Notes under the pieces: model-generated
Databases searched by the model: none
What the model was told of the DNA's origin: nothing
Seen by the model: only the letters and a program-made list of their open reading frames with translations
In this document: positions 6,611 through 29,897 of the stretch, piece after piece
Layout of the letters: the number at the start of each line of letters is the position of its first letter
Position numbering within the stretch: position 1 is the stretch's first letter
Assembly: GCA_042408215.1 (NCBI GenBank)
Contig: JAYFMW010000007.1
Location: 1-64,000 of the forward strand
Origin: Microcoleus sp.
GTDB taxonomy: Bacteria > Cyanobacteriota > Cyanobacteriia > Cyanobacteriales > Microcoleaceae
Direction of reading: 5' to 3'
Length of the DNA stretch: 64,000 bases
Translations under genes and position numbers: made by a program

Positions 6611-6659
6611 TCGATGGCGCTCAAATTGTCATTTTAAATGACAATTTGAGCGCCATCGA
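6611..6659. repeat. Perfect 24-bp inverted repeat with 1-nt centre, containing the premature TAA
   Basis: TCGATGGCGCTCAAATTGTCATTT-T-AAATGACAATTTGAGCGCCATCGA. Confidence 0.97.
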
Positions 6660-6914
6660 TGCCTTGAATCAGGCTTTGATAATCCTGTACAGAGGAGTCT
6701 ACGAAAATAATTTGCTTGTTCATAGTTGATAAGTTCATAATTGCTGAAATCCTTTATATCTATTGTTTACATCCAAGTCTGGGCGGGGTTGAAACCCCCG
6801 CTTCACAGATTCAGTCCTCGTTATGAGAACTGAAGAATTTATTAGTCCTATTGCTCAAATCAATCGATCGGTACAATTGTTAGCCCGTTCCCCTTTTTCA
6901 CGGGAAATGAACGT

Positions 6915-7520
6915 GGAAAACTGATTGTCTTTGCTCATGGCTGACAACATTCGATCGACTTGCGCCTCCCAGGGCGATCGTCATCGCAGTGTGAAACGCG
7001 GATTTTGGCGCAACAAAGCCGCCAGCAAAGTAGAACCCGATCGAGGTAATCCTGATATGAAGTGACCTTTCACTTACCTCGCGTTGGAATGGGTGTGAAT
7101 AACTTAGATGCGAGCTAACTATATCATACTAAAGGCATATTTGTTCTCCAGATTTTTATTTAATATTTCGCAACACAACATCAAGGTTTACGATATCTTT
7201 ACAATCTAGACATCGTGGGTTGACTTTCCCTATCTCTATCATTGCTTCCTGTCCCTGCCTTTGTAAAGTCGGAAAAGTCGGATCTTAAAGTCGGAAAAGT
7301 AGGATCTTTGCCATGAGGACATAATTACTTGACAATTTTTACCGCAGATGGTATTGCGGTTCTCAAGAAAGTGAGGTATGCCCTATGCCCTATGCCCTAC
7401 GCCCTACGCCCTATGCCCTATGCACGTCGGGTATCTCATGTTACTGAGAAAGGCTATAGCGGATGTACGCGGATGTACGCGGATGAATGTTGATTTGGAT
7501 TTAAGGGCGATCGCCCTTTT
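6915..7520 (-). promoter_or_regulatory. Duplicated upstream promoter/leader block, copy 1
   Basis: Near-identical to 18689-19293; candidate -10 TATGAT (minus, 7128-7123); 22-bp direct repeat 7264-7307; hairpin 7042-7081. Confidence 0.7.
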
Positions 7521-7566
7521 TGATCTTTTTTGTACTTAAGGGCGATCGCGCTTTTCCTTCCTTTCC

Positions 7567-10500
7567 TTAAACCAGCCTGAAATTAGCCGATGTTATCGCA
7601 GTCGGACTCACTCCAACCATAACACCTAACTGCTCCCCTGTCAAGAGGTTTTTAATGAGAGTTCCCTGAGTATTTTGAGTGATTGCTAACTGACTAAAAC
7701 TCAAACCTCCGCTTAATCCAATCAAATCTTGACCCAGGGTAAAATCAGCGATGATATCAAATCCTTGACCCGCTTTTAAGACAAAGATATCGTTGCCGCT
7801 ACCGCCAATTAAACTATCATTCCCCATACCTCCGTCAAGCAGATCGTCGCCTTTCCCACCCGTGAGAGTATCGTTATCTGCGCCTCCGTAAAGAGTATCA
7901 TTTCCGGCACACCCTCCCAGGATATCTGCTCCTGCGTCACCGTTGATTAAGTCATTACCTTCGCCACCGCAGATGGTATCATCTCCATCCTGTCCAAACA
8001 GGTTGTCATCACCTTGACTACCAAGCAGGATGTCGTTACCTTTGCCTCCATATAAGGTGTCATTATCCTTACCACCATCGATGAAGTCATCATCTTTATT
8101 GCCATAAATGATGTCAGTACCTTCGCGACCATGTAACAAGTCATTGCCTTTGCCTCCATACATTAAATCGTTCCCAGATTCGCCAAGGATGATGTCGTTT
8201 CCTTCGTCTCCATAGAGGATGTCGTCACCTTTGCCTCCGGTGATGAAGTCGTTGCCTTGGTTGCCGTTAAAGATGTCGTTGCCGGCTCCACCATATAGGT
8301 TGTCATCGCCGGATTGGCCATTGAATATATTGGCAGTGTTGCTACCCAGTAATTCATCGTTTTTGGCAGTACCTATTTGAATTGCCGCTCCACCGATGAT
8401 GGTGTTTTCAACTGCATTGGGTTGATTGAATTTGGGATAGGTAATTCGATCGCAGATGCAGTCATCGTCTGAGAGGTTATTAGTTGTTTCCGATGGTGTC
8501 GGTGTTTCCGATGTTGTTGCTGATGGTGTTTCTGATGGGGTCGAAGTGGTCTTTGGTGTCGGTGTTACCAATGGAATCGGTGTCGGTTTTCCTGATATCG
8601 CAGTGGTTGATGTTGGGGTGACGGTGCCGGGGGTGGTGTCGGGGGTGGTGTCGGTGTCGGTAGAGCTCTCCGAGCCATATTGTACATTTTTGACAGTCAG
8701 GGGGCTTTCAACATTCGCCTCTGCAATCATCTTGTCAAAAGCAGCACCGGTGTTTTCAGAAAGCGCCTCCTCAATGTTCTTCGTACCAGCCCCCACTTGC
8801 TGGAGGTCTTTAGCCACCTCAGCTAACATCGCCTTTTCCACTTGAGCGATGCGAAGCGCTGCCTCGGCGATCGAGATATTGCTGGCTGCAATATCGCTGA
8901 TGCGCTGATTGCCAGCAGCAATGATTTTTGCCACATTGCCTGCTAGACTGGCAACTTCTGGCTTTTGCACGCTTTGGGCAACTGACTCAATCAACCTCTG
9001 CAACAGAGCCGGATCGCTCAAGTTTACAGGAGTTCCCGGCTCTACAACCTTCGATAACTCGCCAATGACCTTTGTGGCAATCTCCACCTTAGAAAGATTG
9101 GAGGCGTTAGCGAATAAATTGGTCACCAAGACAATTGCAACTTGAACCTGAACGTGCGGGCTGTAGATAATTAACCCAGTAAGTTCATTGTCCCGCATCG
9201 CTTCGATGGCATCGTAATTGCCCAAGTCAACATCTGCCGGAATTCCCAAAGCCGCCTGCACCTTGGCTTGAGCCTCTTCTGCATCCATTCCTTTGCGCTC
9301 TAACTCGCTGACCAAAGTCGTAAGCGGAGTGATGGTCGTACCTTCAGAAGCAAACAGGGGCGTTTCCAGAGGCAAATTCGTGGCAGTATTGATGCCACCA
9401 ATTCCCACCACACGGCCCTCTTCCGGGTCTAGGAAACCGCTTTGGTTGGTATCGAAATTGGGAACAAAAATATCTAAATCATAGGTGCCGTCAGCGTTAG
9501 TAATGGTAAAAGGTTCGTCGGGATCTAAAATTCCATTAAAGTTGGCATCGAAGAAAACCTCAGCCCCAGTCACTTCACTGTTAAACAGCTTTCCAATACT
9601 TTTACCGATAGATTTGCCTACTTTGGCGACTGCCTTCACACCACTGCTAAAGCTCTGAACGGTATCCTTAATAGCCGCTTTAGGACCCTGGCTAATCACG
9701 TTGAAGGGTAGACTAAGCACCGAACCCACAACGTCTCTGCCAGCGTTAGCTAACGTGTTGATCGGTCCTAATATGGGAGCCGGAAAAATCCTTTTGATAA
9801 CAGGGTTATTTGTTATAGCAACAGCTAAGTTTAAAGCGCGGTAAGCCGGACTATAACTCAATTTTGTCTGGCCGAAAGCCTTAGCGAATCCTCCAACTGT
9901 AAAGGATTTTGGCAGAACTGGAAAGGGCACAAACACATCGAACAAGCTGGGAGATTTCGATGTCCCTTGGGGGGCGGTGGAGTTTCCAGTTTCCCAACCA
10001 AATTTTGCCAGTGGGAAAGTTGCTAGGTTGTTCTGGTACAGGGTTGTCTTTAACGGCCCAATACCTGCTGTGGCTCGAATATCCAAGGAACCATTAATTG
10101 TGCCGGAAACTGAATTGATGATATTCCAAGGTTGGGCGCTGTTGAGGACAGTATCTATCTCGGAAGCTCGCAATTTTCCATCGCTTCTACCTTCTCGCTC
10201 TCCAACATCTCGCAAATCGACGTTGACATTTCCCTTGATTCCGCCCAGGATGTAAAAATCGGCTACCTTAATATCTGGGCCAGCTTTGGCAGCGAGATTT
10301 GCGGAGATTGTCAGTTCTGGAACATCTTGGCCAGTTCCGTCAGCGTTCTTGCGATCGCTGACATAAAAGCCATCTCTTAACAATTGGATTTTATCCGAGG
10401 CGTAGTTCGTTGCTTTCCACTGTTGCAGCCCGTAGGTGTCGTAGCCAAATTTTAGGTCAGCCTTTGCTTTCAAGTTTCCTTCAAAGCCTACACTCACCGG

Positions 10501-13500
10501 TGGGAAAGGAGGCAGAGGCTTTGTAATATTTATCGGCACATCCAAATCCAGATTGTCCAAATTCAGGGTCACAATTGGGACATCTGGTTTGCCTAAAAGT
10601 AGCTGGATGGCTGTTTCTGGCTTAGTGATAATTGGCACGTCCAGTCCATCAACCACCTCTAACGCTGTCAAAACTGCGGCAGCTTTCGGATCTTTTTTCT
10701 TAAGCTCTTCCTTGCCTATTTTAACGATAGCTTTAGCCTGCGGAGATGTTTTCTCGAACTCTTCTATCCGTTTTAACGGGTTGTAATTATCTAGCTTAAA
10801 AGAGCCGAGATCCATCAAAATAGTGTCATTGTTTTTGATGGAATCGTTAACCAGCTTAGTCACCCGGTCTAACTTGACGATTGTTTCTATGAAGCCCGTG
10901 GATATTGGTCGGCCTGACAAACTGGAAAGGGTAGAGACCATTTCGATGACACTGACCCGCTTCCGATTGTTATCTATATCCTTAAACAAATTCTCCATCC
11001 CGATTTTGGAAAATATCTGCGTGTCCGCATTCAGGAAATCAATAACTGGCCGAAAGGGTTTAAGAACCTGGTCAACCTTAGTGAAAACAGGTTGGGCAAT
11101 GCCGGTTATAAATTCGCCAAAATCCAGTTTTGCATTATTGACCTCAACATTGGGTATGCTAGCAGAACTGACGGAGTTACCGTTGACGTAATCAGCTTTT
11201 GGAAACCCGAACTTCATCTCGAAGACCAAGTTGGGGAATGCTTTGCTGACCACATTTGTCCGGCCTTTCAGGCTCAGATCCCCACTGGTGGAGAAGGTAG
11301 ACTGTGATAATTTTTGCGGGTTGTAGGAACTATTGAGTTCTGCCTCGGTCAGGCGATCGCCATCATTGATACCTCCCAGATTATCTAAGTCATTCAGCTT
11401 GAGCTGATATGTGCCGCCAATTTGAGTGCGCTTGCCTTGGGTGGTATTTTCGTTGAGGGTGGCTGGGAAAAATCCTAGTTTTGCAGAAGTCTTGAACGAG
11501 TCATTTAGACCAAACCCCAGGTTAGTCGTCAGATTCGTTTTGCTGGTATTGATATAGTTGCCAAAAGTTTTGCTGTTACCCAGGCTGAAGTTTAACTGAT
11601 AATCGAGGTTGGCATTGCCATTACCATCGGCGTTAAAGCCAAGGGCAGGCATTCCTATGTCTTTGAGGACGTTAACTGTACCGAGTTGATATTTCCGGCC
11701 TACTGCAATATCCCAGGTGCTTTCCTCATTAGTGGTATTCTTTTGAACCGTAATGTTGAAGTTAGCTCCTAGAGAATTCCGCAGGTTGGTTTGCAACTGC
11801 TCTGCCGTTAAATCGCTTCCTGTTTTCAGCGCATTAACGAGGCTATTTTTGAAGCTACCAATAAAATCTTGATTGAGGTTCTGGAAGGGGCCGACAATGG
11901 GGAGTTTAATACTTTGCTGTTCTTTTTTTACGATTTCGTCCAGCTTGGCCAATCCCTTTTCTACAATATCGGCGGGGGTGAAACTGGCGGCTGTAGGTGG
12001 TGTGGTATCAGGGGCGACAGCAGTGGTAAAATTCCAAGTAGTTGCACCTGTAGTGCCGACATAATTATTACCTGCTAAGTCTTTAATTGCACCGGCCGCA
12101 ATTTCAACGTAGTAACCAGTACCATCAACTAAATCTGCCGTGGGATTAACTGTGACTGTACTACCGCTAACAGTAACATTAGCTGCGGTAACATTGATAG
12201 TTTCTACAACTGAGTTGTCGGAGGATTTTTTGATGACAATATTGCCAGTGCCTTTTTGTACGGCTTCACTCAAGGTGACAACTAAATTAGCAGCAACTGC
12301 AACAGTAGTGGCGTTATCTGCGGGGGTGAAAGTGGCAGTAGGTGGTGTGGTATCAGGGGCGACAGCAGTGGTAAAATTCCAAGTAGTTGCACCTGTAGTG
12401 CCGACATAATTATTACCTGCTAAGTCTTGAATTGCACCGGCCGCAATTTCAACGTAGTAACCAGTACCATTAACCAAGTCGAGAGTTGGATTAACTGTGA
12501 CTGTACTACCGCTAACAGTAACATTAGCTGCGGTAACATTGATAGTTTCTACAACTGAGTTGTCGGAGGATTTTTTGATGACAATATTGCCAGTGCCTTT
12601 TTGTACGGCTTCACTCAAGGTGACAACTAAATTAGCAGCAACTGCAACAGTAGTGGCGTTATCTGCGGGGGTGAAAGTGGCAGTAGGTGGTGTGGTATCA
12701 GGGGCGACAGCAGTGGTAAAATTCCAAGTAGTTGCACCTGTAGTGCCGACATAATTATTACCTGCTAAGTCTTGAATTGCACCGGCCGCAATTTCAACGT
12801 AGTAACCAGTACCATTAACCAAGTCGAGAGTTGGATTAACTGTGACTGTACTACCGCTAACAGTAACATTAGCTGCGGTAACATTGATAGTTTCTACAAC
12901 TGAGTTGTCGGAGGATTTTTTGATGACAATATTGCCAGTGCCTTTTTGGACAGCTTCACTCAAGGTGACAACTAAATTAGCAGCAACTGCAACAGTAGTG
13001 GCGTTATCTGCGGGGGTGAAAGTGGCAGTAGGTGGTGTGGTATCAGGGGCGACAGCAGTGGTAAAATTCCAAGTAGTTGCGCCTGTAGTGCCTGCATAAT
13101 TATTACCTGCTAAGTCTTTAATTGCACCGACCGCAATTTCAACGTAGTAACCAGTACCTTGTGCTAAATCTGCCGTGGGATTAACTGTGACGCTACTACC
13201 GCTAACTGTGACATTTGTGGAAGTAACATTGATAGTTTCTACAACTGAGTTGTCGGAGGATTTTTTGATGACAATATTGCCAGTGCCTTTTTGGACAGCT
13301 TCACTCAAGGTGACAACTAAATTAGCAGCAACTGCAACAGTAGTGGCGTTATCTGCGGGGGTGAAAGTGGCAGTAGGTGGTGTGGTATCAGGGGCGACAG
13401 CAGTGGTAAAATTCCAAGTAGTTGCGCCTGTAGTGCCTGCATAATTATTACCTGCTAAGTCTTTAATTGCACCGGCCGCAATTTCAACGTAGTAACCAGT

Positions 13501-16500
13501 ACCTTGTGCTAAATCTGCCGTGGGATTAACTGTGACGCTACTACCGCTAACTGTGACATTTGTGGAAGTAACATTGATAGTTTCTACAACTGAGTTGTCG
13601 GAGGATTTTTTGATGACAATATTGCCAGTGCCTTTTTGGACAGCTTCACTCAAGGTGACAACTAAATTAGCAGCAACTGCAACAGTAGTGGCGTTATCTG
13701 CGGGGGTGAAAGTGGCAGTAGGTGGTGTGGTATCAGGGGCGACAGCAGTGGTAAAATTCCAAGTAGTTGCGCCTGTAGTGCCGACATAATTATTACCTGC
13801 TAAGTCTTGAATTGCACCAGCGGCAATTTCAACGTAGTAACCAGTACCATCAACTAAATCAAGATTGGGATTAACGGTGACGGTACTACCACTAACTGTG
13901 ACATTGGCTGAAGCAACATCAATGGTTTCCACCACTGAGTTATCAGAGACTTTCTTGATGATAATATTGCCAGTGCCTTTTTGGACTGCTTCACTCAAGG
14001 TGACAACTGCATTAGCAGCAACGGCAATATTAGTGGCGTTATTTACAGGTGTGAAAGTGGTGGCTGTAGGCGCTGTGGTGTCAGCAGTGGTGAATTTCCA
14101 AGCAGTTGCACCTGTAGTGCCGGCGTAATTATTACCAGCTAAGTCTTTAATTGCACCGGCCGCAATTTCAACGTAGTAACCAGTACCATCAACTAAATCA
14201 AGATTGGGATTAACGGTGACGGTACTACCACTAACTGTGACATTGGCTGAAGCAACATCAATGGTTTCCACCACTGAGTTATCAGAGACTTTCTTGATAA
14301 CAATATTGCCAGTGCCTTTCTGTACAGCTTCACTCAAGGTGACAACTACATTAGCAGCAACGGCAATATTAGTGGCGTTATTTACAGGTGTGAAAGTGGT
14401 GACAGTAGGCGCTGTGGTGTCAGCGGTGGTAAAATTCCAAGTAGTTGCACCTGTAGTGCCGACATAATTATTACCTGCTAAGTCTTTAATCGCACCGGCC
14501 GCAATTTCAACGTAGTAACCAGTACCTTCTGCTAAATCTGCCGTGGGATCAACTGTGACGCTACTACCGCTAACTGTGACATTGGCTGAAGTCACATCGA
14601 TAGTTTCAACAACCGAGTTGTCGGAAACTTTCTTGATGACAATATTGCCAGTGCCTTTTTGCACCGCTTCACTCAAGTTGACAACTACATTAGCAGCAAC
14701 TGCAATATTAGTGGCGTTATTTACGGGGTTAAAACTGGTAACAGTTGCCCCGGTTTTATCAATTGTATAAATCTGACCGGTGCTATTGCCGTTACCAGCT
14801 CCCGTACCGCCCAAAGGAACACTTAGACTGTTAAGAATACTGTCGTTATCTGTGAGATTTAGCTGTACTGTGCCATCAGCCGTGCCACTATTCACTGCAA
14901 CGGCATAAGTGCTGCCAGTACCAGTGACGCTAGTAATAGCTGCATCGGTAATACTGACCGCCGCTAAATTAAAGTCACTTGTATCAACACCAGTAACGTT
15001 TTCGCTAAAGGTGACAGTATAGTTGACTGTAGCAGCGTTGCTGGGGTTTGCATCAGTGCGAACAATGCTGGCAACAGTCGGGATGGCATTATTGTAATTA
15101 ACTTGGTTATCTGTGCTGGTGCTGGCGGTAGAAGTATTGCCCCCAGCATCGCTGGCTGCATCGGCTTTCACGGAAGCTGTCACCGTACCAGCGGCAGTCA
15201 TTCCCGTGACGGCAACATTGTAGGTAGTGCCGCTCCCGCTGACAGTGGCAGTGGTAGCCCCAGCAGTGCCACCCAAAGTGATATCGGTACTATCAAAACC
15301 CGTTACGGTTTCGGAAAATACAACGGCAAAATTGACAGTTGAGGCAGCGGTGGGATCGGGTTGTCCCGCATCTTGGTTTATGGTGACAGTAGGAGCAGTG
15401 GAGTCAAAAGTACGGGTTAAGGCGGTGGTGGCGGTGTTGTTATTTCCAGCCGCATCGGTGGCCACACTGCTAGGGACATCAACTGTAACGGTTCCCTGGC
15501 TGGTGGGGGTGACGGTGAAGGTGTAGGTAGTCCCAGAGCCACTCAAGCCGCTGACGGTGCCGTTGGTGACGGTGATATCGGTGTCAACAAAGTTGGTTGT
15601 GCTTTCGCTGAAGGTGGCCGTGACGGGAAATGGGGCGTTGACTGTGGCTGCGGTAGCCGAAGTTAAAGCGACTGTAGGGGCTGCACTGTCAAAAGTACGG
15701 GTTAAGGCGGTGGCGGCGGTGTTGTTATTTCCAGCCGCATCGGTGGCCACACTGCTAGGGACATCAACTGTAACGGTTCCCTGGCTGGTGGGGGTGACGG
15801 TGAAGGTGTAGGTAGTCCCAGAGCCACTCAAGCCGCTGACGGTGCCGTTGGTGACGGTGATATCGGTGTCAACAAAGTTGGTTGTGCTTTCGCTGAAGGT
15901 GGCCGTGACGGGAAATGGGGCGTTGACTGTGGCTGCGGTAGCCGAAGTTAAAGCGACTGTAGGGGCTGCACTGTCAAAAGTACGGGTTAAGGCGGTGGCG
16001 GCGGTGTTGTTATTTCCTGTCTCATCGGTGGCTACCCCAGCCGGAACATCAACTGTAACGGTTCCCTGGCTGGTGGGGGTAACGGTGAAGGTGTAGGTAG
16101 TCCCAGAGCCACTCAAGCCGCTGACGGTGCCGTTGGTGACGGTGATATCGGTGTCAACAAAGTTGGTTGTGCTTTCGCTGAAGGTGGCCGTGACGGCAAA
16201 TGGGGCGTTGACGGTGGCTGCGGCAGCGGAACTGAGGCTGACAGTGGGAGCTAAAGCATCAATAGTTAAACTATTACTTGCTATGGGTGTACCGGTTTTG
16301 GTACCACTATCAAAGGTAATATTAGTTAAACTGGGTGCTGCTAAATTGATGGTATCAGCATCAGTAGGCGATGCAGCAATATCAGTAGTGACGAATAGAT
16401 AACCAGTGCTACCTTTAGTAATAGCTTGAGTTAATCCTGTGAAAGACAAACTACCACCTGATGCTACGGGTGCTAGGCTTGATAGTTGGGTATCGCCTAC

Positions 16501-18420
16501 ATCAAATGTGCCATCAGCCGAATACCACAATTTGAAATTAGAGACATCAGCCGCTTGATAAGTACCGCCTGTAGTGAGAGTTAAACCTGTAAGTTTGGTA
16601 TCCCATCCTGTCACTGCTAAGTTGACTTGATAGAGCAATTTATTGGTATTACTGGGGCCGACTGTCGCAGCGGAGATGGCTGGTGTGGTGACGACAATAT
16701 CGGGACTACCATAGCGGGCTAAAGCAAAGTCATTGTTACTGCCATTGTTAGCAAATCCAGCGACGACAATTTTCCCACTACTATCTAGGCTTATGGCAGA
16801 GATAATATCGTTGCTACTGCCGATCGCAGTAGTGACTTTACCATCAGTATCAAAAGTGGTATCCAAGCTGCCGTCACTGTTGTACCGGGCGAGGCCAAAG
16901 TCATCGTTACTGCCATTGTTGGCATACCCCGCCACCATTATTTTCCCACTACTATCTATGGTCAGGGCACGGCCTCGGTCGTTGCTACTGCCAATAGCAG
17001 TAGTGACTTTACCATCGGTATCAAAAGTGCTATCCAAACTGCCGTCACTGTTATACCGCGCGAGGGCAAAGTCATCGTTACTGCCATTGTTGGCATACCC
17101 CGCCACCACAATTTTTCCACTACTATCTGTGGTGATGATATCGCCTTCGTCGTTCCCAGGGCCAATAGCAGTAGTGAGTTTACCATCGGTATCAAAAGTG
17201 ATGTCCAAGCTACCGTTAGTGTTGTATCGGGCGAGGCCGAAGTCAAAGTTACTCCCATTGTGAGTAGGCCCTGCTACCAGGATTTTTCCACTACTATCTA
17301 TGGTTATGGCATTGCCAAATTCGTTGAAACTGCCGATCGCAGTGGTGACTTTACCATCGGTATCAAAAGTGGTATCCAAGCTACCATCAGTGTTGTACCG
17401 GGCGAGGGCAAAGTCAAAGTTACCGCTATTGTTGGTAAACCCCGACACCAGGATTTTTCCACTACTATCTATGGTCATGGCATTGCCAAATTCGTCGCTA
17501 CTACCGATCGCAGTAGTGACTTTACCATCGGTATCAAAAGTGGTATCCAAGGTGCCGTCAGTGTTGTAGCGGGCGAGGGCAAAGTCATTGTTACTACCGT
17601 TGTGAGCATACCCTGCTACCACGATTTTCCCACTACTATCTATTCTCATGGCATTGACTTGATCGTTCCCCGGGCCGATAGCAGTAGTCACTTTACCACC
17701 AGTACCAAAACTGGTATCCAAGGTTCCGTCAGTGTTGTACCGAGTGAGGGCAAAGTCAAAGTTACCGCCATTGTCCGCATACCCCGCGACGACGATTTTG
17801 CCACTACTATCGATGGCGATCCCTCGGCCTTCGTCGTTACCACTGCCGATCGGAGTGATGACTTTCCCTGTACTATTAAAACTGGTGTCTAAATCCCCTG
17901 CACCTAATACGCCTTGATAAGTTAATTGCAGATCCGGGGTAATAATACTAGGTGCAGATATTTCTCCTAATTTTACTTCTAATTCCCAATCCCCACCGAG
18001 TGCCGCATTCCCCGTCTTGTCGGTGGATGCTGCTACATCTGCCCCGGTTATTTCGCTGAGGCGTTTTACGAAGTTTTCTCCAGCTTCTCCCGCTGCTACA
18101 TCGCATCCATAAAGTAGGATATCGCCATTTGCTGTCAGGGCATTTCCCCACTGTTTTATCTGAGCGTTAAAATTTTCTAGGTTATGCTCATTGAGTACGT
18201 CAGCACCGAGTTTTAAACTGCCTTCGCTGCCGTGAGAAACTATATGAACTGCTTCAATATCTTTTTGATCTGCCAAGGCGTTAGTAATTTGGTCTATGGC
18301 GCTGGAATTTTCCTTTAAAATGACAATTTGAGCGCCATCGATGCCTTGAATCAGGCTTCGATAATCCTGTACAGAGGAGTCTACGAAAATAATTTGCTTG
18401 TTCATAGTTGATAAGTTCAT
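7567..18420 (-). CDS. 3617-aa DUF4347 / delta-60 repeat propeller / Ig-like repeats / RTX Ca-binding surface protein (likely type I secreted)
   Basis: DUF4347 N-terminus; about 7 LDTTFDTDGKVTT..GKIVVAG..FALARY repeats; two classes of Ig-like repeat; GGxGxD nonapeptides; RTX-type C-terminus. Confidence 0.92.
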   Translation of the reverse strand: MNLSTMNKQIIFVDSSVQDYRSLIQGIDGAQIVILKENSSAIDQITNALADQKDIEAVHIVSHGSEGSLKLGADVLNEHNLENFNAQIKQWGNALTANGDILLYGCDVAAGEAGENFVKRLSEITGADVAASTDKTGNAALGGDWELEVKLGEISAPSIITPDLQLTYQGVLGAGDLDTSFNSTGKVITPIGSGNDEGRGIAIDSSGKIVVAGYADNGGNFDFALTRYNTDGTLDTSFGTGGKVTTAIGPGNDQVNAMRIDSSGKIVVAGYAHNGSNNDFALARYNTDGTLDTTFDTDGKVTTAIGSSDEFGNAMTIDSSGKILVSGFTNNSGNFDFALARYNTDGSLDTTFDTDGKVTTAIGSFNEFGNAITIDSSGKILVAGPTHNGSNFDFGLARYNTNGSLDITFDTDGKLTTAIGPGNDEGDIITTDSSGKIVVAGYANNGSNDDFALARYNSDGSLDSTFDTDGKVTTAIGSSNDRGRALTIDSSGKIMVAGYANNGSNDDFGLARYNSDGSLDTTFDTDGKVTTAIGSSNDIISAISLDSSGKIVVAGFANNGSNNDFALARYGSPDIVVTTPAISAATVGPSNTNKLLYQVNLAVTGWDTKLTGLTLTTGGTYQAADVSNFKLWYSADGTFDVGDTQLSSLAPVASGGSLSFTGLTQAITKGSTGYLFVTTDIAASPTDADTINLAAPSLTNITFDSGTKTGTPIASNSLTIDALAPTVSLSSAAAATVNAPFAVTATFSESTTNFVDTDITVTNGTVSGLSGSGTTYTFTVTPTSQGTVTVDVPAGVATDETGNNNTAATALTRTFDSAAPTVALTSATAATVNAPFPVTATFSESTTNFVDTDITVTNGTVSGLSGSGTTYTFTVTPTSQGTVTVDVPSSVATDAAGNNNTAATALTRTFDSAAPTVALTSATAATVNAPFPVTATFSESTTNFVDTDITVTNGTVSGLSGSGTTYTFTVTPTSQGTVTVDVPSSVATDAAGNNNTATTALTRTFDSTAPTVTINQDAGQPDPTAASTVNFAVVFSETVTGFDSTDITLGGTAGATTATVSGSGTTYNVAVTGMTAAGTVTASVKADAASDAGGNTSTASTSTDNQVNYNNAIPTVASIVRTDANPSNAATVNYTVTFSENVTGVDTSDFNLAAVSITDAAITSVTGTGSTYAVAVNSGTADGTVQLNLTDNDSILNSLSVPLGGTGAGNGNSTGQIYTIDKTGATVTSFNPVNNATNIAVAANVVVNLSEAVQKGTGNIVIKKVSDNSVVETIDVTSANVTVSGSSVTVDPTADLAEGTGYYVEIAAGAIKDLAGNNYVGTTGATTWNFTTADTTAPTVTTFTPVNNATNIAVAANVVVTLSEAVQKGTGNIVIKKVSDNSVVETIDVASANVTVSGSTVTVNPNLDLVDGTGYYVEIAAGAIKDLAGNNYAGTTGATAWKFTTADTTAPTATTFTPVNNATNIAVAANAVVTLSEAVQKGTGNIIIKKVSDNSVVETIDVASANVTVSGSTVTVNPNLDLVDGTGYYVEIAAGAIQDLAGNNYVGTTGATTWNFTTAVAPDTTPPTATFTPADNATTVAVAANLVVTLSEAVQKGTGNIVIKKSSDNSVVETINVTSTNVTVSGSSVTVNPTADLAQGTGYYVEIAAGAIKDLAGNNYAGTTGATTWNFTTAVAPDTTPPTATFTPADNATTVAVAANLVVTLSEAVQKGTGNIVIKKSSDNSVVETINVTSTNVTVSGSSVTVNPTADLAQGTGYYVEIAVGAIKDLAGNNYAGTTGATTWNFTTAVAPDTTPPTATFTPADNATTVAVAANLVVTLSEAVQKGTGNIVIKKSSDNSVVETINVTAANVTVSGSTVTVNPTLDLVNGTGYYVEIAAGAIQDLAGNNYVGTTGATTWNFTTAVAPDTTPPTATFTPADNATTVAVAANLVVTLSEAVQKGTGNIVIKKSSDNSVVETINVTAANVTVSGSTVTVNPTLDLVNGTGYYVEIAAGAIQDLAGNNYVGTTGATTWNFTTAVAPDTTPPTATFTPADNATTVAVAANLVVTLSEAVQKGTGNIVIKKSSDNSVVETINVTAANVTVSGSTVTVNPTADLVDGTGYYVEIAAGAIKDLAGNNYVGTTGATTWNFTTAVAPDTTPPTAASFTPADIVEKGLAKLDEIVKKEQQSIKLPIVGPFQNLNQDFIGSFKNSLVNALKTGSDLTAEQLQTNLRNSLGANFNITVQKNTTNEESTWDIAVGRKYQLGTVNVLKDIGMPALGFNADGNGNANLDYQLNFSLGNSKTFGNYINTSKTNLTTNLGFGLNDSFKTSAKLGFFPATLNENTTQGKRTQIGGTYQLKLNDLDNLGGINDGDRLTEAELNSSYNPQKLSQSTFSTSGDLSLKGRTNVVSKAFPNLVFEMKFGFPKADYVNGNSVSSASIPNVEVNNAKLDFGEFITGIAQPVFTKVDQVLKPFRPVIDFLNADTQIFSKIGMENLFKDIDNNRKRVSVIEMVSTLSSLSGRPISTGFIETIVKLDRVTKLVNDSIKNNDTILMDLGSFKLDNYNPLKRIEEFEKTSPQAKAIVKIGKEELKKKDPKAAAVLTALEVVDGLDVPIITKPETAIQLLLGKPDVPIVTLNLDNLDLDVPINITKPLPPFPPVSVGFEGNLKAKADLKFGYDTYGLQQWKATNYASDKIQLLRDGFYVSDRKNADGTGQDVPELTISANLAAKAGPDIKVADFYILGGIKGNVNVDLRDVGEREGRSDGKLRASEIDTVLNSAQPWNIINSVSGTINGSLDIRATAGIGPLKTTLYQNNLATFPLAKFGWETGNSTAPQGTSKSPSLFDVFVPFPVLPKSFTVGGFAKAFGQTKLSYSPAYRALNLAVAITNNPVIKRIFPAPILGPINTLANAGRDVVGSVLSLPFNVISQGPKAAIKDTVQSFSSGVKAVAKVGKSIGKSIGKLFNSEVTGAEVFFDANFNGILDPDEPFTITNADGTYDLDIFVPNFDTNQSGFLDPEEGRVVGIGGINTATNLPLETPLFASEGTTITPLTTLVSELERKGMDAEEAQAKVQAALGIPADVDLGNYDAIEAMRDNELTGLIIYSPHVQVQVAIVLVTNLFANASNLSKVEIATKVIGELSKVVEPGTPVNLSDPALLQRLIESVAQSVQKPEVASLAGNVAKIIAAGNQRISDIAASNISIAEAALRIAQVEKAMLAEVAKDLQQVGAGTKNIEEALSENTGAAFDKMIAEANVESPLTVKNVQYGSESSTDTDTTPDTTPGTVTPTSTTAISGKPTPIPLVTPTPKTTSTPSETPSATTSETPTPSETTNNLSDDDCICDRITYPKFNQPNAVENTIIGGAAIQIGTAKNDELLGSNTANIFNGQSGDDNLYGGAGNDIFNGNQGNDFITGGKGDDILYGDEGNDIILGESGNDLMYGGKGNDLLHGREGTDIIYGNKDDDFIDGGKDNDTLYGGKGNDILLGSQGDDNLFGQDGDDTICGGEGNDLINGDAGADILGGCAGNDTLYGGADNDTLTGGKGDDLLDGGMGNDSLIGGSGNDIFVLKAGQGFDIIADFTLGQDLIGLSGGLSFSQLAITQNTQGTLIKNLLTGEQLGVMVGVSPTAITSANFRLV

Positions 18421-18687: not shown

Positions 18688-18688
18688 C

Positions 18689-19293: not shown

Positions 19294-19341
19294 TTACTTA
19301 ATGGCGATCGCCCAAATCGCGAATTCTACACCGAAGGGATA

Positions 19342-20181: not shown

Positions 20182-20241
20182 AAACAATTAAAAATAAACT
20201 CAACAACTGTATTATTTTAATATAACTGTGCAACAATGATG

Positions 20242-21465: not shown

Positions 21466-21468
21466 AGA

Positions 21469-22011
21469 TTACAACGCATCTATTTCGAGGTCAATAGCAT
21501 CAGTATATCTGTTGACACTGCTAAACAGGTCTGCCGTCGCAATCAATTCAAAGATTTCTGCATTATCTAGTCCTAAATCCCGCAGGTTTTGGTAGTGAGT
21601 TGCTGTGAGCTGCTGGGGAGTGGTGGCGGCTTGCAAACCAAAGGTAATTACGGCTTTTTCGCGATCGGGCAGGGGGCAGTTGGCAAAGTCTGAAACCAGC
21701 AGATGCAGGACTTCTTCGCTAATTCCCAAAGCTGAGAGTCCGTGGAGGTGAACTTTTAAGGCGTACTGGCTATTATTTGCTTGGGAAATGGCGACTCCGA
21801 TCATTTCTTTGAGGGTGCGGGGCACATCTCCTTGCAGGATTGTAGACCGAAATTTTTTCCAGTTTGCTTCTAATAAGTCTGGGTTGGTGGCCATTGACTT
21901 GAACAGGTTTGGTACGATGCCAAATCCTAGTTCTGTCAAGATTTCGTCGTATACTGCTTGAGCTTTTGGATCGGTGAGTTGCTCGTATTCGGCGATCGGA
22001 AAGTGTGTCAT
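21469..22011 (-). CDS. AhpD/carboxymuconolactone decarboxylase family protein lacking CxxC
   Basis: LGFGIVPNLFKSMA..LKEMIGVAISQANNSQYALKVH pattern. Confidence 0.8.
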   Translation of the reverse strand: MTHFPIAEYEQLTDPKAQAVYDEILTELGFGIVPNLFKSMATNPDLLEANWKKFRSTILQGDVPRTLKEMIGVAISQANNSQYALKVHLHGLSALGISEEVLHLLVSDFANCPLPDREKAVITFGLQAATTPQQLTATHYQNLRDLGLDNAEIFELIATADLFSSVNRYTDAIDLEIDAL

Positions 22012-22308
22012 GTGTATTATAGTTTTTACTACTGTTGATGGTCAGATGCACCGCTTTATACAAACCACAAGTAGTGAATATGAGCTAGCAGGGGGTAGGA
22101 TTTTTGCTACTCGATTCAATATCTACATTATTACAGCCGAAAAATTTAACATCCGGATTTTAACACATACTTCCGCATTTTGAAACAAAAAATCTTGGTC
22201 GATCGACCAAGAACACCCGCTCTACGCCCTCAATTTTCCCCTCTCCTGCAACCAAACAAGGTTATTATAGGTAAACTGTAAACTTCTATCCTTGTCGCTG
22301 CATTTGCT

Positions 22309-23625
22309 ATGAACCCTGCCCTGACTCAATTTGGCACTCAAATGTCCCACCTCACCGGGGTTCGGGCAATTATGAAAGATATTATTGAAACCCTGAGAGC
22401 CGGTAGCGGGCAGGAGTTTATTAATTTGAGCGCCGGAAATCCGGTGATTTTGCCGGAAGTCGAGCAGTTGTGGCGCGACAGCACTGCGGAACTTTTGGCG
22501 AGTGCGGAATACGGCGAGGTGGTTTGTCGCTACGGTTCGAGTCAAGGCTATCAGCCGTTTATCAATGCGGTGCTGGCGGATTTTAACCGACGCTACGGAC
22601 TGAATTTGACCGATCGCAATATTCTAATTACTCCCGGTAGTCAATCGATCTACTTCTACGCAGCCAATGCTTTCGGTGGCTACACCGCACCCCCCCCATC
22701 CCCCCCTTACCAAGGGGGGGCGAGGGGGGGTAGCCTTAAACATATTGTTTTACCCCTCAGCCCGGATTACACCGGTTATGGCGGTGTCAGCTTGATTCCC
22801 GAAGCTGTAATTGCTTGTAAGCCAACTCTCGATATTGACGAAGCTGCTCACAGGTTCAAATACCGCCCGGATTTCAGTCAATTGTCGATCGATGAAACCA
22901 CTGGTTGCATAATATTTTCCCGTCCCTGTAACCCCACTGGGAACGTCCTCACCGATGACGAAGTGAAGAAAATTGCAGCTTTGGCGGCTCCTTTCAACGT
23001 GCCGATTTTCATTGATTCTGCCTACGGGCCTCCCTTCCCGGCCTTGAATTTTACCGAGATGACGCCGATTTTTGGCGACAATATTGTCCACTGCATGAGT
23101 TTGTCGAAAGCGGGATTACCGGGTGAGAGAATCGGAATTGCGATCGGCGATCAAAAGATTATTCAAGTTTTAGAGTCTTTTCAGACCAATATGTGCATTC
23201 ACTCGCCTAGATACGGACAGGCGATCGCCACTCGTGCCATTAATTCCGGCGCTCTTGCCGACATTGCCCTCAACGTGATTCGGCCGTATTATCAAAGCAA
23301 ATTTGCTGTAGTTGAAACAACTTTAGAACAAGCAATGCCGAAGGATTTGCCGTGGTTTTTGCACCGTGGCGAAGGGGCAATTTTCGCATGGCTGTGGCTG
23401 AAAGATTTGCCAATGACTGATTGGGAATTTTATCAGGAATTGAAGAAGGTCGGCGTGATTGTCGTGCCGGGAAGTTCTTTCTTTCCTGGTTTGCGCGAAG
23501 ATTGGCGGCACAAGCAGGAGTGTTTGCGAATTAGTTTGACAGCGACTAATCAGGAGCTTGAAACTGCGATGAAACGTTTGGCTCAAATGGTGGAAAAGGT
23601 TTATAAGTCAGCAGTTATTGGTTAG
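22309..23625 (+). CDS. avtA: Valine--pyruvate transaminase (PLP class I/II)
   Basis: LSAGNP, SRPCNPTG, IDSAYG and SLSKAGLPGERIG motifs. Confidence 0.88.
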   Translation: MNPALTQFGTQMSHLTGVRAIMKDIIETLRAGSGQEFINLSAGNPVILPEVEQLWRDSTAELLASAEYGEVVCRYGSSQGYQPFINAVLADFNRRYGLNLTDRNILITPGSQSIYFYAANAFGGYTAPPPSPPYQGGARGGSLKHIVLPLSPDYTGYGGVSLIPEAVIACKPTLDIDEAAHRFKYRPDFSQLSIDETTGCIIFSRPCNPTGNVLTDDEVKKIAALAAPFNVPIFIDSAYGPPFPALNFTEMTPIFGDNIVHCMSLSKAGLPGERIGIAIGDQKIIQVLESFQTNMCIHSPRYGQAIATRAINSGALADIALNVIRPYYQSKFAVVETTLEQAMPKDLPWFLHRGEGAIFAWLWLKDLPMTDWEFYQELKKVGVIVVPGSSFFPGLREDWRHKQECLRISLTATNQELETAMKRLAQMVEKVYKSAVIG

Positions 23626-23795
23626 TTGTTATTGGTTAGTTGTTATTGGTTAGTTGTTAGTTGTTATTGGTTATTGGTGAGTTGTTAGTTGTTAGTTGCT
23701 ACCAATTCCCAATTCCCAATTCCCAATTCCCAATTCCCAATTCCCAATTCCCAATTCCCAATTCCCAATTCCCAATTCCCGATTCCCAATTCCCA
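23612..23795. repeat. STRR tracts (GTTATTG/GTTAGTT, then CCCAATT x about 13)
   Basis: Direct inspection. Confidence 0.95.
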
Positions 23796-23868
23796 GTGAC
23801 CGATTACAATGACTTCTTCCTTTGTAGATCGACTACAATTTAAAAAATAATTAGCAGCGCGGTGGGTT

Positions 23869-24433
23869 ATGGCTGTGCAATTACTCAAAAGGTTGTTGAC
23901 TGTAGAAGAATATCACTTAATCAGCAAAGCTGGTATTCTTTCCGAGGGCGATCGGGTAGAATTGATAGAAGGAGAACTTGTACAAAGGGCAGCAATTGGA
24001 ACTCGTCATGCTTCCTGCGTGAGATGATTCATCGGACTGTTCAGCGAAATTCCCAAAAACCGGGCTTTTCTGGATATGCAAAACCCCATTCATTCAGTTG
24101 AGCGATCGCACCGAACCTCAACCTGATGTAGTATTGCTGTAACCCCGCGCTGATTACTATTCAACAGTACATCCAGTACCATCAGAAGTTTTGCTGTTGG
24201 TAGAGGTATCCGATAGCACGGTTGATTACGATCGAGATGTGAAAGTTCTGATTTACGTGCGATCGCTCATTCAAGAAGTCTGGCTCGTAGATCTAGAGGC
24301 ACAATGTTTAGAAGTTTACCGCCAGCCAACTCCTAATGGTTACAGTTTAATCCAAAAGTTTTGGCGGCGTCAACAAGTTTCGCCGTTCGCATTTCCTGAG
24401 TTGGAAGTGAAGAGCGATTTTGTACTTGGATAG
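23869..24433 (+). pseudogene. Uma2 family endonuclease pseudogene
   Basis: [26 protein letters not shown], then TGA; PQPDV followed by TAA; LLVEVSDST..EVWLVD in 3' part. Confidence 0.85.
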
Positions 24434-24469
24434 ATGGGGATTTGATATTATTCCCTAAATGGCGATCCC

Positions 24470-24632
24470 CCTTTTTTACTTAAGGGCGATCGGACTTTTC
24501 CTTCCTTCCCTAAATCCGCCGGAAATTGACCGATATTATCCAATTCGCAATCACTCCAATCATAACACCTAACTCCTCCCCTGTCAAGAGGTTTTTGAGA
24601 ATTGTTCCATGATTATTTGGAGTGATTGCTAA
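24470..24632 (-). pseudogene. Remnant 3' end of an RTX/DUF4347 paralogue
   Basis: Degenerate match to 7530-7690, including the shared stretch CCCCTGTCAAGAGGTTTTT. Confidence 0.75.
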
Positions 24633-24673
24633 CAGTCCAAACAGGGAGGATTTCGCCTCCCTGTGATGACTTA

Positions 24674-24815
24674 TACCAATTTAATGTAAAGTTGCACATA
24701 TTCCGATCCCCCTAAATCCCCTTAAGAAGGGGGACTTTGATTGGACTCTTGTCCCCCCCTTCTTAAGGGGGGTTAGGGGGGATCGAATTCTATGCAGCTT
24801 CATAAAAAATTGGTA
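24674..24815. mobile_element. MITE-like element with TACCAATT terminal inverted repeats around a GC-rich palindrome
   Basis: TACCAATTTAATGTAAAGTTGCACA...TATGCAGCTTCATAAAAAATTGGTA. Confidence 0.7.
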
Positions 24816-24839
24816 TTAGCAGTATCTTCCCCAGCAATC

Positions 24840-27800
24840 TTACAAGAAAGAGCCACTATTAAGAGCAGTTTGATTCACATTATAAACCACTCCCAAGTAG
24901 TTATTTCCCGATTTAATCGCCGTTGAAGCTACAGCAGTTGCACCATCTAAGATGATATTAACAGACTCAAAGGTTAGTTGACTGAAATTGACACCAATCA
25001 ACTTGATTTTATCATCGGAAGTGAAGTCAGCGATCGCATCAGCTTGAGATGGGTTAGTAGCGGTATATTGTAATACAAAGGTATCATTACCCGCACCACC
25101 GGTGAGCACATCGAAACCTCGATCGCCCCACAATTCATCATCCCCATTCCCACCAATCAAAACATCATTTTCCTTACCCCCGCGTAAGAGATCGTTACCC
25201 CCGCCACCAGTGACAGTATCATTGTCATTATTTGCACTCAAGAAGTCATTCCCATTACCACCAGACAATTGATCCGATTTTTTCCCCCCAAACAATTGAT
25301 CGTTACCATCACCGCCATCAATCGTATCAGCACCTTCGTTACCAGAGATGGTGTCATTATCGGCACTTCCCGTCAACTTATCATTACCTGATAACCCGAA
25401 TATAGGTTTACCAAAGGCTGATTGTGGGATACTGGTATCATCTCCATCACTCAGTAGATATTGGTTATCTACCACTTGATTTTGTGGGAAATTAGTTGGT
25501 TCACCGCGATCGATTTTATTGACGGGTGGTGTGTCAATTACGATCGCCGTGGGTGTCGGTGTGGGTGTTGGTGTTGTCGGTGTTTCTGTGGGAACAGGTG
25601 TTACCGATGGTGTGGGAGTTGGTGTCACCGTTGGTGTCGGTGTTACCAATGGAATTGGTATTGGCGTTGGTGTCGGAACCGGAACCGCAACATTAACGTT
25701 AAAAGTCCCTAAACTGGTAGCAGCATTAAAATTGCCAAGTGCATCTTTAACCTGACTTCCTTGTAACTTGACAGTGTAAGTTCCATTGTCAGTATCATCC
25801 CAACTTCCACCAGGAGGAATAAACGAATAAGTTGCTGTACGCGGCGTACCATTACTATTAGTATCGACACTGACAAATTTTGCAGGAATATCACCGCCAG
25901 ACCAATTTATCAAAACATCAGAACTATCCAAACTTGAAACATCAACAGCATTACTATCGCTGAAAGTCACAGTCAAAGTTTGACTGGTTCCTCCTGCTGT
26001 AGTAATGTTAGAAATTGCACCAAAGTTAGCAGTTGGGGCGGTAATATTAGCAGTGCGAGAAAGTTGAGTTGCTGCGGTATTATTATTACCCGCAGTATCT
26101 GTAGCTTTAGCCGCCGGAATATCAACTGTGACATTTCCATCCGCAGTGGGAGTCACATCAAAGATGTAAGTTTTTGCATTTACTTTAACAAAGTTACTCG
26201 CCGTTGCATTGGCTACGGTAATATCAGTATTATCAAAGCCGATGACATCTTCACTGAAGGTAGCAGTGACGCTAAATAAACCGTTAACTGTTGGTGTGGA
26301 AGTGGATGTTAAAGTAACAGTTGGTGCGGTAACATCAACAATTGGTGTGGTAATATTAGCAGTGCGAGAAAGTTGAGTTGCTGCGGTATTATTATTACCC
26401 GCAGTATCTGTAGCTTTAGCCGCCGGAAGATCAACTGTGACATTTCCATCCGCAGTGGGAGTCACATCAAAGATGTAAGTTTTTGCATTTACTTTAACAA
26501 AGTTACTCGCCGTTGCATTGGCTACGGTAATATCAGTATTATCAAAGCCGATGACATCTTCACTGAAGGTAGCAGTGACGCTAAATAAACCGTTAACTGT
26601 TGGTGTGGAAGTGGATGTTAAAGTAACAGTTGGTGCGGTAACATCAACAATTGGTGTGGTAATATTAGCAGTGCGAGAAAGTTGAGTTGCTGCGGTATTA
26701 TTATTACCCGCAGTATCCGTAGCTTTAGCCGCCGGAAGATCAACTGTGACATTACCATCCGCAGTGGGAGTGACATCAAAGGTGTAAGTTTTCGCATCAA
26801 CTGTGGCAAAGTTACCAACAGTTGCATTGGCTACGGTGATATCAGTAGTATCAAATCCCGTGACATTTTCATTGAAGGTAGCAGTGACGCTAAATAAACC
26901 GTTAACTGTTGGTGTGGAAGTGGATGTTAAAGTAACAGTTGGTGCGGTAACATCAACAATTGGTGTGGTAATATTAGCAGTGCGAGAAAGTTGAGTTGCT
27001 GCGGTATTATTATTACCCGCAATATCAGTTGCTTTAGCCGCCGGAATATCAACTGTGACATTACCATTCGCAGCGGGAGTGACATCAAAGGTGTAAGTTT
27101 TCGCATCAACTGTGGCAAAGTTACCAACAGTTGCATTGGCTACGGTGATATCAGTAGTATCAAATCCCGTGACATTTTCATTGAAGGTAGCAGTGACGCT
27201 AAATGGTGCGTTAATTGTGGTGGCTGATGCGGAGGTTAAAGTAACAGTTGGTGCGGTGAAATCAGCAGTGCGAGTTAATTGAGTAGCTGCGGTATTATTA
27301 TTACCCGCAATATCAGTTGCTTTAGCCGCCGGAAGATCAACTGTGACATTACCATTCGCAGCGGGAGTGACATCAAAGGTGTAAGTTTTCGCATCAACTG
27401 TGGCAAAGTTACCAACAGTTGCATTGGCTACGGTGATATCAGTAGTATCAAATCCCGTGACATTTTCATTGAAGGTAGCAGTGACGCTAAATGGTGCGTT
27501 AATTGTGGTGGCTGATGCGGAGGTTAAAGTAACAGTTGGTGCGGTGAAATCAGCAGTGCGAGTTAATTGAGTTGCTGCGGTATTATTATTACCCGCAATA
27601 TCAGTTGCTTTAGCCGCCGGAAGATCAACTGTGACATTACCATTCGCAGCGGGAGTGACATCAAAGGTGTAAGTTTTCGCATCAACTGTGGCAAAGTTAC
27701 CAACAGTTGCATTGGCTACGGTGATGTCGCTAGTATCAAACCCTGTGACATTTTCATTGAAGGTAGCAGTGACGCTAAATGGTGCGTTAATTGTGGTGGC

Positions 27801-29897
27801 TGATGGGGAGGTTAAAGTAACTGTTGGTGCAACAGTATCAATAACTATGGCTTTACTACCACCGAGAGAGTTAGCTGTAGCTAAGGTAGGAAGAGTTAAG
27901 TCGGCATTCGTAGCCAAATTATCTTGAATTTTGCCACCGTTGAGAGTAAGGGCACTTGTGGAGAGATATTCTAAGTCGGTAGAAGAATCCCCGGCTTGCA
28001 CTACATAGTTGAAAGTGAGTACAGTACCGCCACTACCACTGGTATATGTGGCAAAACGGTCAGTTGTACCTGTTTCTAATTGCAGTTGCGGCGTGCCAGT
28101 GACAGTCACAGCAGCATCGAAGGTGACGGTGATGGCGATAGTAGAACCTACACCGTAACTGTTGTTAGTGTTGGTAGCAGTTACCGCAGTCACTTTGGCG
28201 GTGGTGTTGAGCAGGATGGAGGCGGTGTCGCTGACCCGGTTCGCCACAGCTAAGTCCGGTTTGCCGTCGCCGTTGAGGTCGCCGATGCTGACGTAGCGGG
28301 GGCCACTGCCAGTGGTGAAATCAACTTTAGGGTTGAAAGTGGGGGCGGTGGCGTTGGTGGCGGTGGTGTTGATCAGGATGGAGGCGTTGCCGCTGCCGTA
28401 GTTCGCCACAGCTAAGTCGGGTTTGCCGTCGCCGTTGATGTCGCCGATGCTGACGGAGCGGGGGCTACTGCCAGTTGTGAAGTCAACTTTGGTGGCAAAG
28501 GTGGGGGTGGTGGCGTTGGTGGCGGTGGTGTTGAGCAGGATGGAGACGTTGTTGCTGCCGGTGTTCACCACAGCTAAGTCCGGTTTGCCGTCCCCGTTGA
28601 TGTCGCCGATGCTGACGGAGGCGGGGCCAGTGCCAGTTGTGAAGTCAACTTTAGTGGCGAAGGTGGGGGTGGTGGCGTTGGTGGCGGTGGTGTTGAGTAG
28701 GATGGAGGCGGTGCTGTCGTTTTTGTTCGCCACAGCTAAGTCGGGTTTGCCGTCGCCGTTGATGTCGCCGATGCTGACGGAGTAGGGCTTAATGCCAGTG
28801 GTGAAGTCAACTTTGGTGGCGAAAGTGGGGGTGGTGGCTCCGGTGGCTGTGGTGTTGAGCAGGATGGAGGCGGTGTTGCCACTGTAGTTAGCCACAGCTA
28901 AGTCCAGTTTGCCGTCGCCGTTGAAGTCGTCAATGCTGACGGAGATGGGTAAACCGCCAGTGGTGAAGTCAGCTTTAGGGTTGAAGCTGGGGGTGGTGGC
29001 GTTGGTGGCGGTGGTGTTGAGTAGGATGGAGGCGCTGGGGCTGCTGTTGAAGTTCGGCACAGCTAAGTCCAGTTTGTTGTCCTTGTTGATGTCGCCGATG
29101 CTGACGAAGTAGGGCCTAGTGCTAGTGGTGAAGTCAACTTTAGGGTTGAAGGTGGGGGTGGTGGCGTTGGTGGCGGTGGTGTTGAGGAAGATGGAGGCAG
29201 TGTCGCTGCCGAGGTTCGCCACAGCTAAGTCCGGTTTGCCGTCGCCGTTGATGTCGCCGATGCTGACGGAGACGGGTTGATCGCCAGTTGTGAAGTCAAC
29301 TTTGGGGGCGAAGCCTAGTATGCCACTGTAGGTTTTGAGGCTGGTTTCGGTGAGGGCAAGTTTAGGCCTTTGGGGGGATGGGGGGATGAGTTGGATGATG
29401 TCCCAGGTGCCGCCTTTTTTCCCATTCCCGGTGGGGTTGGGGTTGGCTGCGATGTTGGCCCCGGTGAGTTGGTAAAGTTGAGTCAAGAATTGGCTACCGG
29501 AGTCCCCCTCGGCTACGTTGCATCCATATAATATGATCCTGGCATCAGGTGTGAGGGCGTTTCGCCATTGTCGCAACTGTTGGCTGTAGTTTTCTATGTT
29601 ACGGCTATTTAGTTCTGTTGTCCCTAGGTACAGGTGGCCGGGGCTACCGTGGGAGATGATGTGTAGGGCTTCGATGCCTGTATGTTGAGCTAGGAGTGTG
29701 GTGATTTGCTCTATGGCGTTAGGCTGGCTTTCGAGGATGTAGGTTTCCGTGCCTGGTTTGATGCCTTGGGCTATATGATTACTATCGGGTACTGTGGGGT
29801 CAACGATCGCAATTGAATTGGGATTTTTGCTTTAGCAAAAATCCCAATTCAAAAAATTTTTTTTGGGGGTGTGGTTAATTTGAGGTAGAGTTTTCAT
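24840..29897 (-). pseudogene. DUF4347 / FG-GAP repeat / Ig-like repeat / PT linker / RTX surface protein with premature TAA at codon 22
   Basis: ATG at 29897 is in frame with ORF 29576-24840; IAIVDPTV..ALHIISHGSPG DUF4347 residues lie upstream of the ORF-track start; GDINGDGKPDLAVAN-type repeats x about 6; TAA at 29834-29832. Confidence 0.85.
29813..29852. repeat. Perfect 19-bp inverted repeat with 2-nt centre, containing the premature TAA
   Basis: TTGAATTGGGATTTTTGCT-TT-AGCAAAAATCCCAATTCAA. Confidence 0.97.

Follow-up and report, generated by a model that had tools for sequence, protein, structure and literature searches.

Stop codons that sit at the centre of perfect coding palindromes, and that become sense codons when only the few central bases are inverted, were analysed here starting from a 64,000-nt stretch of a Microcoleus sp. 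contig (JAYFMW010000007.1, assembly GCA_042408215.1; hereafter the window). The window carries three genes for giant DUF4347 proteins (genes 1, 2 and 3), and genes 1 and 3 are interrupted in this way. We show that these stop-toggling palindromes are real and family-wide. They probably act as recombinase-free contingency loci, flipped through template-switch inversion of the spacer. Copies with the central stop are called OFF and those with a sense codon ON; sites 1 and 3 are named after genes 1 and 3.

Palindromic stops in the window

Read from its ATG at 6738 (minus strand), gene 1 meets a TAA at codon 35 (6634-6636), and gene 3, read from ATG 29897 on the same strand, meets one at codon 22 (29832-29834). 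Re-reading of both codons bore out the original prediction, made from the letters of the sequence, that each TAA lies at the centre of a perfect palindrome; the arms are 24 and 19 bp long, respectively. The chance expectation in the 7.36-Mb genome is 3e-7 for an arm of 24 and 3e-4 for an arm of 19. The same note had stated that inverting the centre restores a sense codon, that the two palindromes are unrelated and that gene 2 is open, and all three statements hold. Inversion of the spacer alone changes TAA to TTA (Leu) in gene 1 and to TTT (Phe) in gene 3, opening 1634 and 1663 downstream codons; the arms differ in sequence between the two sites, and from those of a third site in a sigma-factor gene described below; and gene 2 runs uninterrupted for 3617 amino acids (aa) from ATG 18420 (minus strand). 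The features are as follows.

6611-6659, no strand assigned: site-1 perfect palindrome, arm 24, 1-bp spacer at 6635, OFF orientation
1-6738, minus strand: gene 1, DUF4347 (6223-6711) followed by Big_5 repeats; stop at 6634-6636; runs off the contig start
7567-18420, minus strand: gene 2, 3617 aa, with DUF4347, DUF5122, Big_12, Big_5 and RTX Ca-binding repeats; open
18293-18341, no strand assigned: decayed site-1 palindrome of gene 2, 18/23 pairs, perfect core of 3 bp, ON (TTA, centre 18317)
24840-29897, minus strand: gene 3, short leader, DUF4347, FG-GAP, Big_12 and RTX repeats; codon-22 stop upstream of DUF4347
29813-29852, no strand assigned: site-3 perfect palindrome, arm 19, 2-bp spacer at 29832-29833, OFF orientation

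In Pfam searches, DUF4347 (over the cut-off) and Ig-like repeats were found in all three genes; genes 2 and 3 also matched RTX calcium-binding repeats. A second lesion of gene 1 is a 1-base insertion at 1759-1760, in one of its 16 Big_5 repeats, which shifts the frame; beyond it the frame continues to the contig start. This insertion is either a real lesion or an assembly indel.

Distribution in the genome and among relatives

The genome of the window (G000) encodes 15 DUF4347 genes, six of which form the subfamily of gene 1. In five of these six a perfect palindrome of 23-25 bp occupies the same codon, each time with a different arm sequence, and four of the five are OFF. Genome-wide, the perfect DUF4347 toggle sites number six, five OFF and one ON, with no sign of coupling between them, and gene 2, whose arms are imperfect, is ON; these observations lend no support to the proposal that the switch chooses which adhesin is expressed. 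The only perfect ON copy (C20:124043) is disrupted by frameshifts in the FG-GAP repeats, some 180 codons from its start. A further gene, C8:5304, is a mosaic of a site-1 type start and a gene-3 type DUF4347 remainder, a composition that suggests recombination among paralogues.

We then scanned the genome for perfect inverted repeats with arms of at least 15 bp and spacers of 1-8 bp, and examined 111 repeats. Five lay inside frames of at least 200 codons; all five are the 5′ ends of DUF4347 genes and all five are OFF, so that the scan for palindrome-centred stops suggested in the original prediction gave an enrichment in DUF4347 genes (5/5 long coding repeats). A random inversion of 1-4 bp in a coding frame was computed to yield a stop in 5-8% of cases. 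Two candidate coding repeats, C23:16207 and C28:265138, were discarded as simple-repeat DNA, and REP-like repeats were excluded by a start-codon filter, as they do not lie in real genes. With arms of at least 13 bp, the genome holds 258 perfect repeats, 106 of them with a 1-bp spacer, and most belong to REP-like families in which both orientations of the centre occur. A tandem array at C17:342246-343140 (L273) gives a further example: it consists of 212-bp units with a 21-bp-arm inverted repeat and a 7-bp spacer, two units being in one orientation and one inverted, and one unit is imperfect. As non-coding repeats show both spacer orientations, spacer inversion is a general process in this genome, within which the long coding repeats are the cases that toggle stops.

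Sites 1 and 3 were searched for in 79 genomes of the genus; the named records with a site are from Microcoleus, Tychonema, Kamptonema, Oscillatoria and related metagenome-assembled genomes (MAGs). For site 1 we retained 99 distinct copies with at least 15/23 arm pairs and enough flanking sequence. Copies with an arm of at least 20 (perfect) were 37 OFF and 18 ON, and imperfect copies 4 OFF and 40 ON; in an earlier, unfiltered set of 81, no stop was seen among the 45 copies with arms below 10. At site 3 (68 copies) the split was 17 OFF and 4 ON for arms of at least 15, and 1 OFF and 46 ON for shorter arms, the lone short-arm OFF copy having 15/16 pairs. Four spacer geometries with different arms were found there (AA/TT, AG/CT, CTA/TAG and ATTA/TAAT), and all of them toggle a stop. 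The other centre orientation, which the original prediction had asked to be looked for in relatives, is thus present at both sites. In three of the 68 site-3 copies (L111, L137 and L159) the start codon is out of frame through a length change in a C/A tract upstream of the palindrome; this is possibly a second, slippage-type switch in the same leader.

Among perfect site-1 copies, OFF and ON numbered 11 and 6 in MAG-titled records, 10 and 7 in isolates, and 15 and 6 in metagenome contigs. Two loci that mapped to a neighbouring DUF4347 gene (L178, L233) were dropped from these counts, and L172 was too short for site 3. Because OFF is the majority in all three sources alike, we reject the earlier suggestion that adhesin loss was selected in culture: the OFF state is equally common in environmental genomes and isolates. 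G051 and G042, both near-finished genomes, have OFF alleles too. The palindrome is absent from other DUF4347 subfamilies, with 5-7/23 pairs at the site in the loci examined, and stops are rare in them (6 among the 150 matches listed, of 407).

The genome scan revealed a third site, in a gene for an extracytoplasmic function (ECF)-type sigma-70 factor with regions 2 and 4. Here a perfect palindrome between the two regions has a 3-bp spacer that toggles ATG or ACG versus TAG. Its copies are the following.

C8:94702 (L272) and C17:105052 (L271) in G000, and L274-L357 in relatives: sigma-site copies, several genera of the family

A survey of 144 genomes of the family gave 62 copies. With arms of at least 10, 8 were OFF (TAG) and 9 ON; with shorter arms, 44 were ON and one had an ordinary, off-centre stop. 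The sigma-gene flip may be a regulon switch or may split the sigma factor. One genome taken at first for an OFF case, G093, was ruled out, its three copies being TTA with imperfect arms and a stop upstream of the ATG. Stops therefore track perfect arms at three sites, in line with the recombinase-free centre inversion at perfected palindromes that had been invoked for genes 1 and 3. The two events had been taken as independent events of the same kind in one gene family; the sameness of kind is borne out, but they are not one-off accidents, as both sites are conserved family-wide and a third lies in the sigma-factor gene.

Arm evolution, selection and the predicted effect of the stop

The 55 perfect site-1 copies comprise 16 arm variants, and 9 of the 23 arm pairs occur as more than one Watson-Crick type. 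Mismatches in site-1 arms showed no excess of G-U (42 G-U, 31 A-C and 95 other). Arms that covary without such an excess point to copying at the DNA level, and a selected mRNA hairpin was ruled out on the same ground.

Close alleles differ in state by the centre only: in the pair L224/L239 the centre base is the sole difference over 913 bp, and in L196/L197 the centre is the sole difference over 2,340 bp. When the OFF label was placed on the tree of flanking sequences, 26 changes were needed among the 99 site-1 rows. No phylogenetic signal of the state was detected among the 55 perfect copies (17 changes vs. a shuffled mean of 15.3).

OFF alleles remain under purifying selection and are not decaying. 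For 15 OFF-OFF pairs at site 1, the ratio of nonsynonymous to synonymous divergence (dN/dS) was 0.18 for the part of the gene after the stop and 0.10 for the part before it, vs. 0.24 and 0.08-0.10 for ON pairs; six OFF-OFF sister pairs gave a pooled value of 0.29. At site 3 the ratio was 0.31 for OFF vs. 0.30. Extra stops were found in 2/41 OFF copies (17,659 codons) vs. 2/58 ON copies (22,579 codons) at site 1, and the start codon was kept in 41/41 OFF copies.

The giant DUF4347 proteins, judged from their domains and predicted fold, are putative adhesins or surface proteins with an N-terminal caspase-fold domain. The DUF4347 model (gene 2, 17866-18420) has a predicted local distance difference test score (pLDDT) of 90 and weakly resembles caspases, legumain and CHAT domains (template-modelling score, TM, 0.4-0.5); His63-Gly64 and Cys106 are conserved, and the domain is a candidate self-processing protease. 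In this model the first two strands of the domain precede the site-1 stop. At site 3 the stop precedes the domain and the first start downstream of it lies 65-75 codons on. Since one stop is inside the fold and the other has no nearby start, the OFF state is expected to abolish the protein. The sigma-gene stop lies between regions 2 and 4 and separates them.

As to neighbouring genes, gene 3 adjoins a TPR/glycosyltransferase-41/DUF4915 gene (30509-33853), and a sulfotransferase gene stands beside the site-1 gene in 18 of the 74 open reading frames (ORFs) scanned in the L175-L214 neighbourhoods. Neighbours of these two kinds suggest modification of the DUF4347 proteins.

Mechanism, alternatives and significance

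Template switching at quasi-palindromes perfects the arms, and its intermolecular form also inverts the spacer (Ripley model; PMC5941160, PMC8604942, PMC7202029). Spacer inversion with arm homogenisation is described in proteobacteria (PMC5941160) and in E. coli quasi-palindrome reporters (PMC7202029), and in yeast coding repeats the spacer inverts on arms longer than 9 bp, reversibly (PMC8604942). The Microcoleus sites resemble these cases in their perfect arms above 9 bp and spacers only a few bases long, in the occurrence of both orientations while the arms stay the same, and in parallel and reversed events; here, too, arms longer than about 9 bp flank a short spacer found in both orientations and are homogenised in concert at the DNA level. 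The cited yeast cases instead alter amino acids and are regarded as mutation without adaptive value (PMC8604942), whereas in Microcoleus the long coding repeats all toggle stops, either close to a gene's 5′ end or between the sigma domains; three independent sites do so, and the stop form is in the majority.

In the model that we propose, a short perfect inverted repeat in coding sequence (arms 10-25 bp, spacer 1-4 bp) reads as sense in one spacer orientation and as TAA or TAG in the other. During replication the nascent strand would jump to the opposite arm on the other side of the fork and then return, thereby restoring perfect arms and inverting the spacer. On a perfect palindrome the event would be symmetric, so that the gene could be turned off or on again. 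Populations would be mostly OFF for the giant surface proteins, which are presumably costly, and lineages would be ON at frequent enough intervals to account for the purifying selection that is observed over the entire gene. Mutations in the arms would damp the switch; copies with imperfect arms are, as a correlation, almost always ON.

Several points weigh against this proposal. Both orientations are known from contigs of separate copies or genomes, never from inside one clone or read set. Logan contigs of relatives were ON at 6635 in 10/11 cases (four runs) and OFF in 1/11, and the clade nearest gene 1 has mostly imperfect arms and is ON; these contigs cannot show switching, because they come from relatives and paralogues that also differ at many other positions. 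In X2, one contig stops at 6640 (T) and another at 6629 (A), the points from which 31-mers fall inside the palindrome, which is a hint at most, and the RNA run X9 gave ON contigs, which are not proof of transcription. The tree does not polarise the changes, which leaves the step from OFF to ON putative, and repeated young knock-outs from ON ancestors would likewise result in a low dN/dS. Some copies may simply be dying, since gene 1 and C20:124043 carry downstream frameshifts. The significance of the ON/OFF contrasts is overstated because kin are not independent, and the putative ON/OFF effect on surface proteins is read from sequence.

An alternative that we consider unlikely but worth keeping in view is a one-way hotspot, in which the palindrome is a mutational trap that perfects itself: ON lineages would keep yielding OFF mutants that are locally favoured by the cost of the protein and then become extinct or shed the gene, with return to ON too rare to matter. 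A single intermolecular switch that both perfects the arms and inverts the spacer would account for the OFF excess among perfect copies (54/76), and the unpolarised tree and the second lesions of some copies fit as well; non-coding repeats flip too, so no adaptive reason is needed. Yet perfect palindromes persist across alleles at a synonymous divergence (pS) of about 0.24 with dN/dS of 0.18, and the OFF-OFF sister pairs remain constrained. About 40% of site-1 copies are OFF with decay no greater than in ON copies. Moreover, the reverse event is the same reaction on a perfect palindrome, and yeast spacer inversions are reported to reverse (PMC8604942).

It is improbable that the stop does not silence and that the flip instead tunes the form of the product, by downstream restart, read-through, bypass of a hairpin or split sigma halves. 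An in-frame TTG does lie four codons past the stop in 31/41 site-1 OFF copies and seven codons past it in the sigma gene, the mRNA folds to a strong hairpin with the stop in its loop, and the downstream frames are intact. The segment upstream of the site-1 stop, however, encodes the first two DUF4347 strands and keeps both its start codon and its low dN/dS in OFF copies, site 3 has the long start-free interval noted above, and the arms are without the G-U excess expected of a selected RNA stem. Very little likelihood attaches to a consensus artefact, in which read correction or assembly randomises the palindrome centre of genes that are really ON. Such an artefact would equally predict the absent phylogenetic signal, identical flanks and normal dN/dS, the Logan contigs, made without read correction, are mostly ON, and L224/L239 might be two assemblies of related data. 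Several observations nevertheless make it unlikely. Random flipping of genes that are really ON could bring the OFF share to one half at most, and the observed share is higher; OFF is also seen with imperfect arms (four copies at site 1, one at site 3) and in repeats of as little as 27 bp that differ at three bases; the sigma and site-3 repeats are only 25-45 bp with 2-3 differing bases, so that by our reasoning any k of at least 27 spans flank and spacer; and OFF copies occur across contig-name styles and in the near-finished genomes. One Logan contig, too, is OFF.

A dedicated or borrowed enzyme, such as a cruciform resolvase, an HUH/REP-type nuclease or a site-specific recombinase, is a similarly remote prospect. 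REP-like hairpins are abundant with centres both ways, and one hairpin-acting enzyme could serve them all. Against this, the three sites have unrelated arms and share no arm or centre motif, the spacers of 1-4 bp depart from invertase-type anatomy, and the arms are re-homogenised, unlike the outcome of recombinase action. Neither the window nor the 74 (of 75) upstream ORFs that were scanned contained a recombinase family; no search was made for a trans-acting enzyme encoded in the rest of the genome.

The contingency-locus proposal was also set beside known switches. Intragenic invertons found with PhaVa (PMC10028968) resemble the Microcoleus sites in being reversible intragenic inversions that yield premature stops, with surface genes among their targets, but are predicted to be invertase-driven and span tens of bases or more (57 bp in one example); enzyme-independent 7-bp flips are set apart there as different. 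The toggles described here flip 1-4 bp, have covarying arms and no linked recombinase. With simple sequence repeat (SSR) contingency loci (PMC10710837) they have in common an enzyme-free, locally hypermutable and potentially reversible ON/OFF change of surface genes, and, as in such loci, both states occur on otherwise identical close alleles and the gene is kept functional despite frequent OFF. In contrast, the Microcoleus toggles act on inverted repeats, through an inversion that resembles a substitution rather than through slippage and frameshift; at sites 1 and 3 the OFF state leaves the length unchanged and consists of a stop in frame. Nematomorpha mitochondria (PMC6649704) likewise have coding palindromes that are perfect inverted repeats, with both arms encoding conserved protein, but those genes are translated and the abstract mentions no stop/sense toggle. 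Neither the Microcoleus feature nor bacterial palindrome centres that toggle stops were described in the literature searched, which left out most subscription papers and supplements (e.g., the PhaVa inverton lists).

A broader claim, that a new class of phase variation is at work here, is evenly poised between right and wrong. On this reading, self-repairing palindromes arose repeatedly in Microcoleaceae, and recombinase-free inversion of their 1-4 bp centres would switch a stop on and off, controlling giant surface proteins and an ECF-type sigma factor, and through the latter possibly an entire regulon; how perfect the arms are would determine how fast the switch operates. If the flips are reversible in living populations, they would be a new minimal phase-variation mechanism, and one found in a free-living cyanobacterium rather than a pathogen. 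A centre flip looks like an ordinary single-nucleotide polymorphism or pseudogene to annotation and inversion finders, and if the new-class reading is true, many annotated single-stop pseudogenes would be resting switches. A stop centred on a perfect coding palindrome provides a genome signature for screening, and the sites would allow a direct test of adaptive harnessing of template switching. As Microcoleus is a dominant former of mats and biocrusts, the palindromes are a candidate control of attachment versus dispersal.

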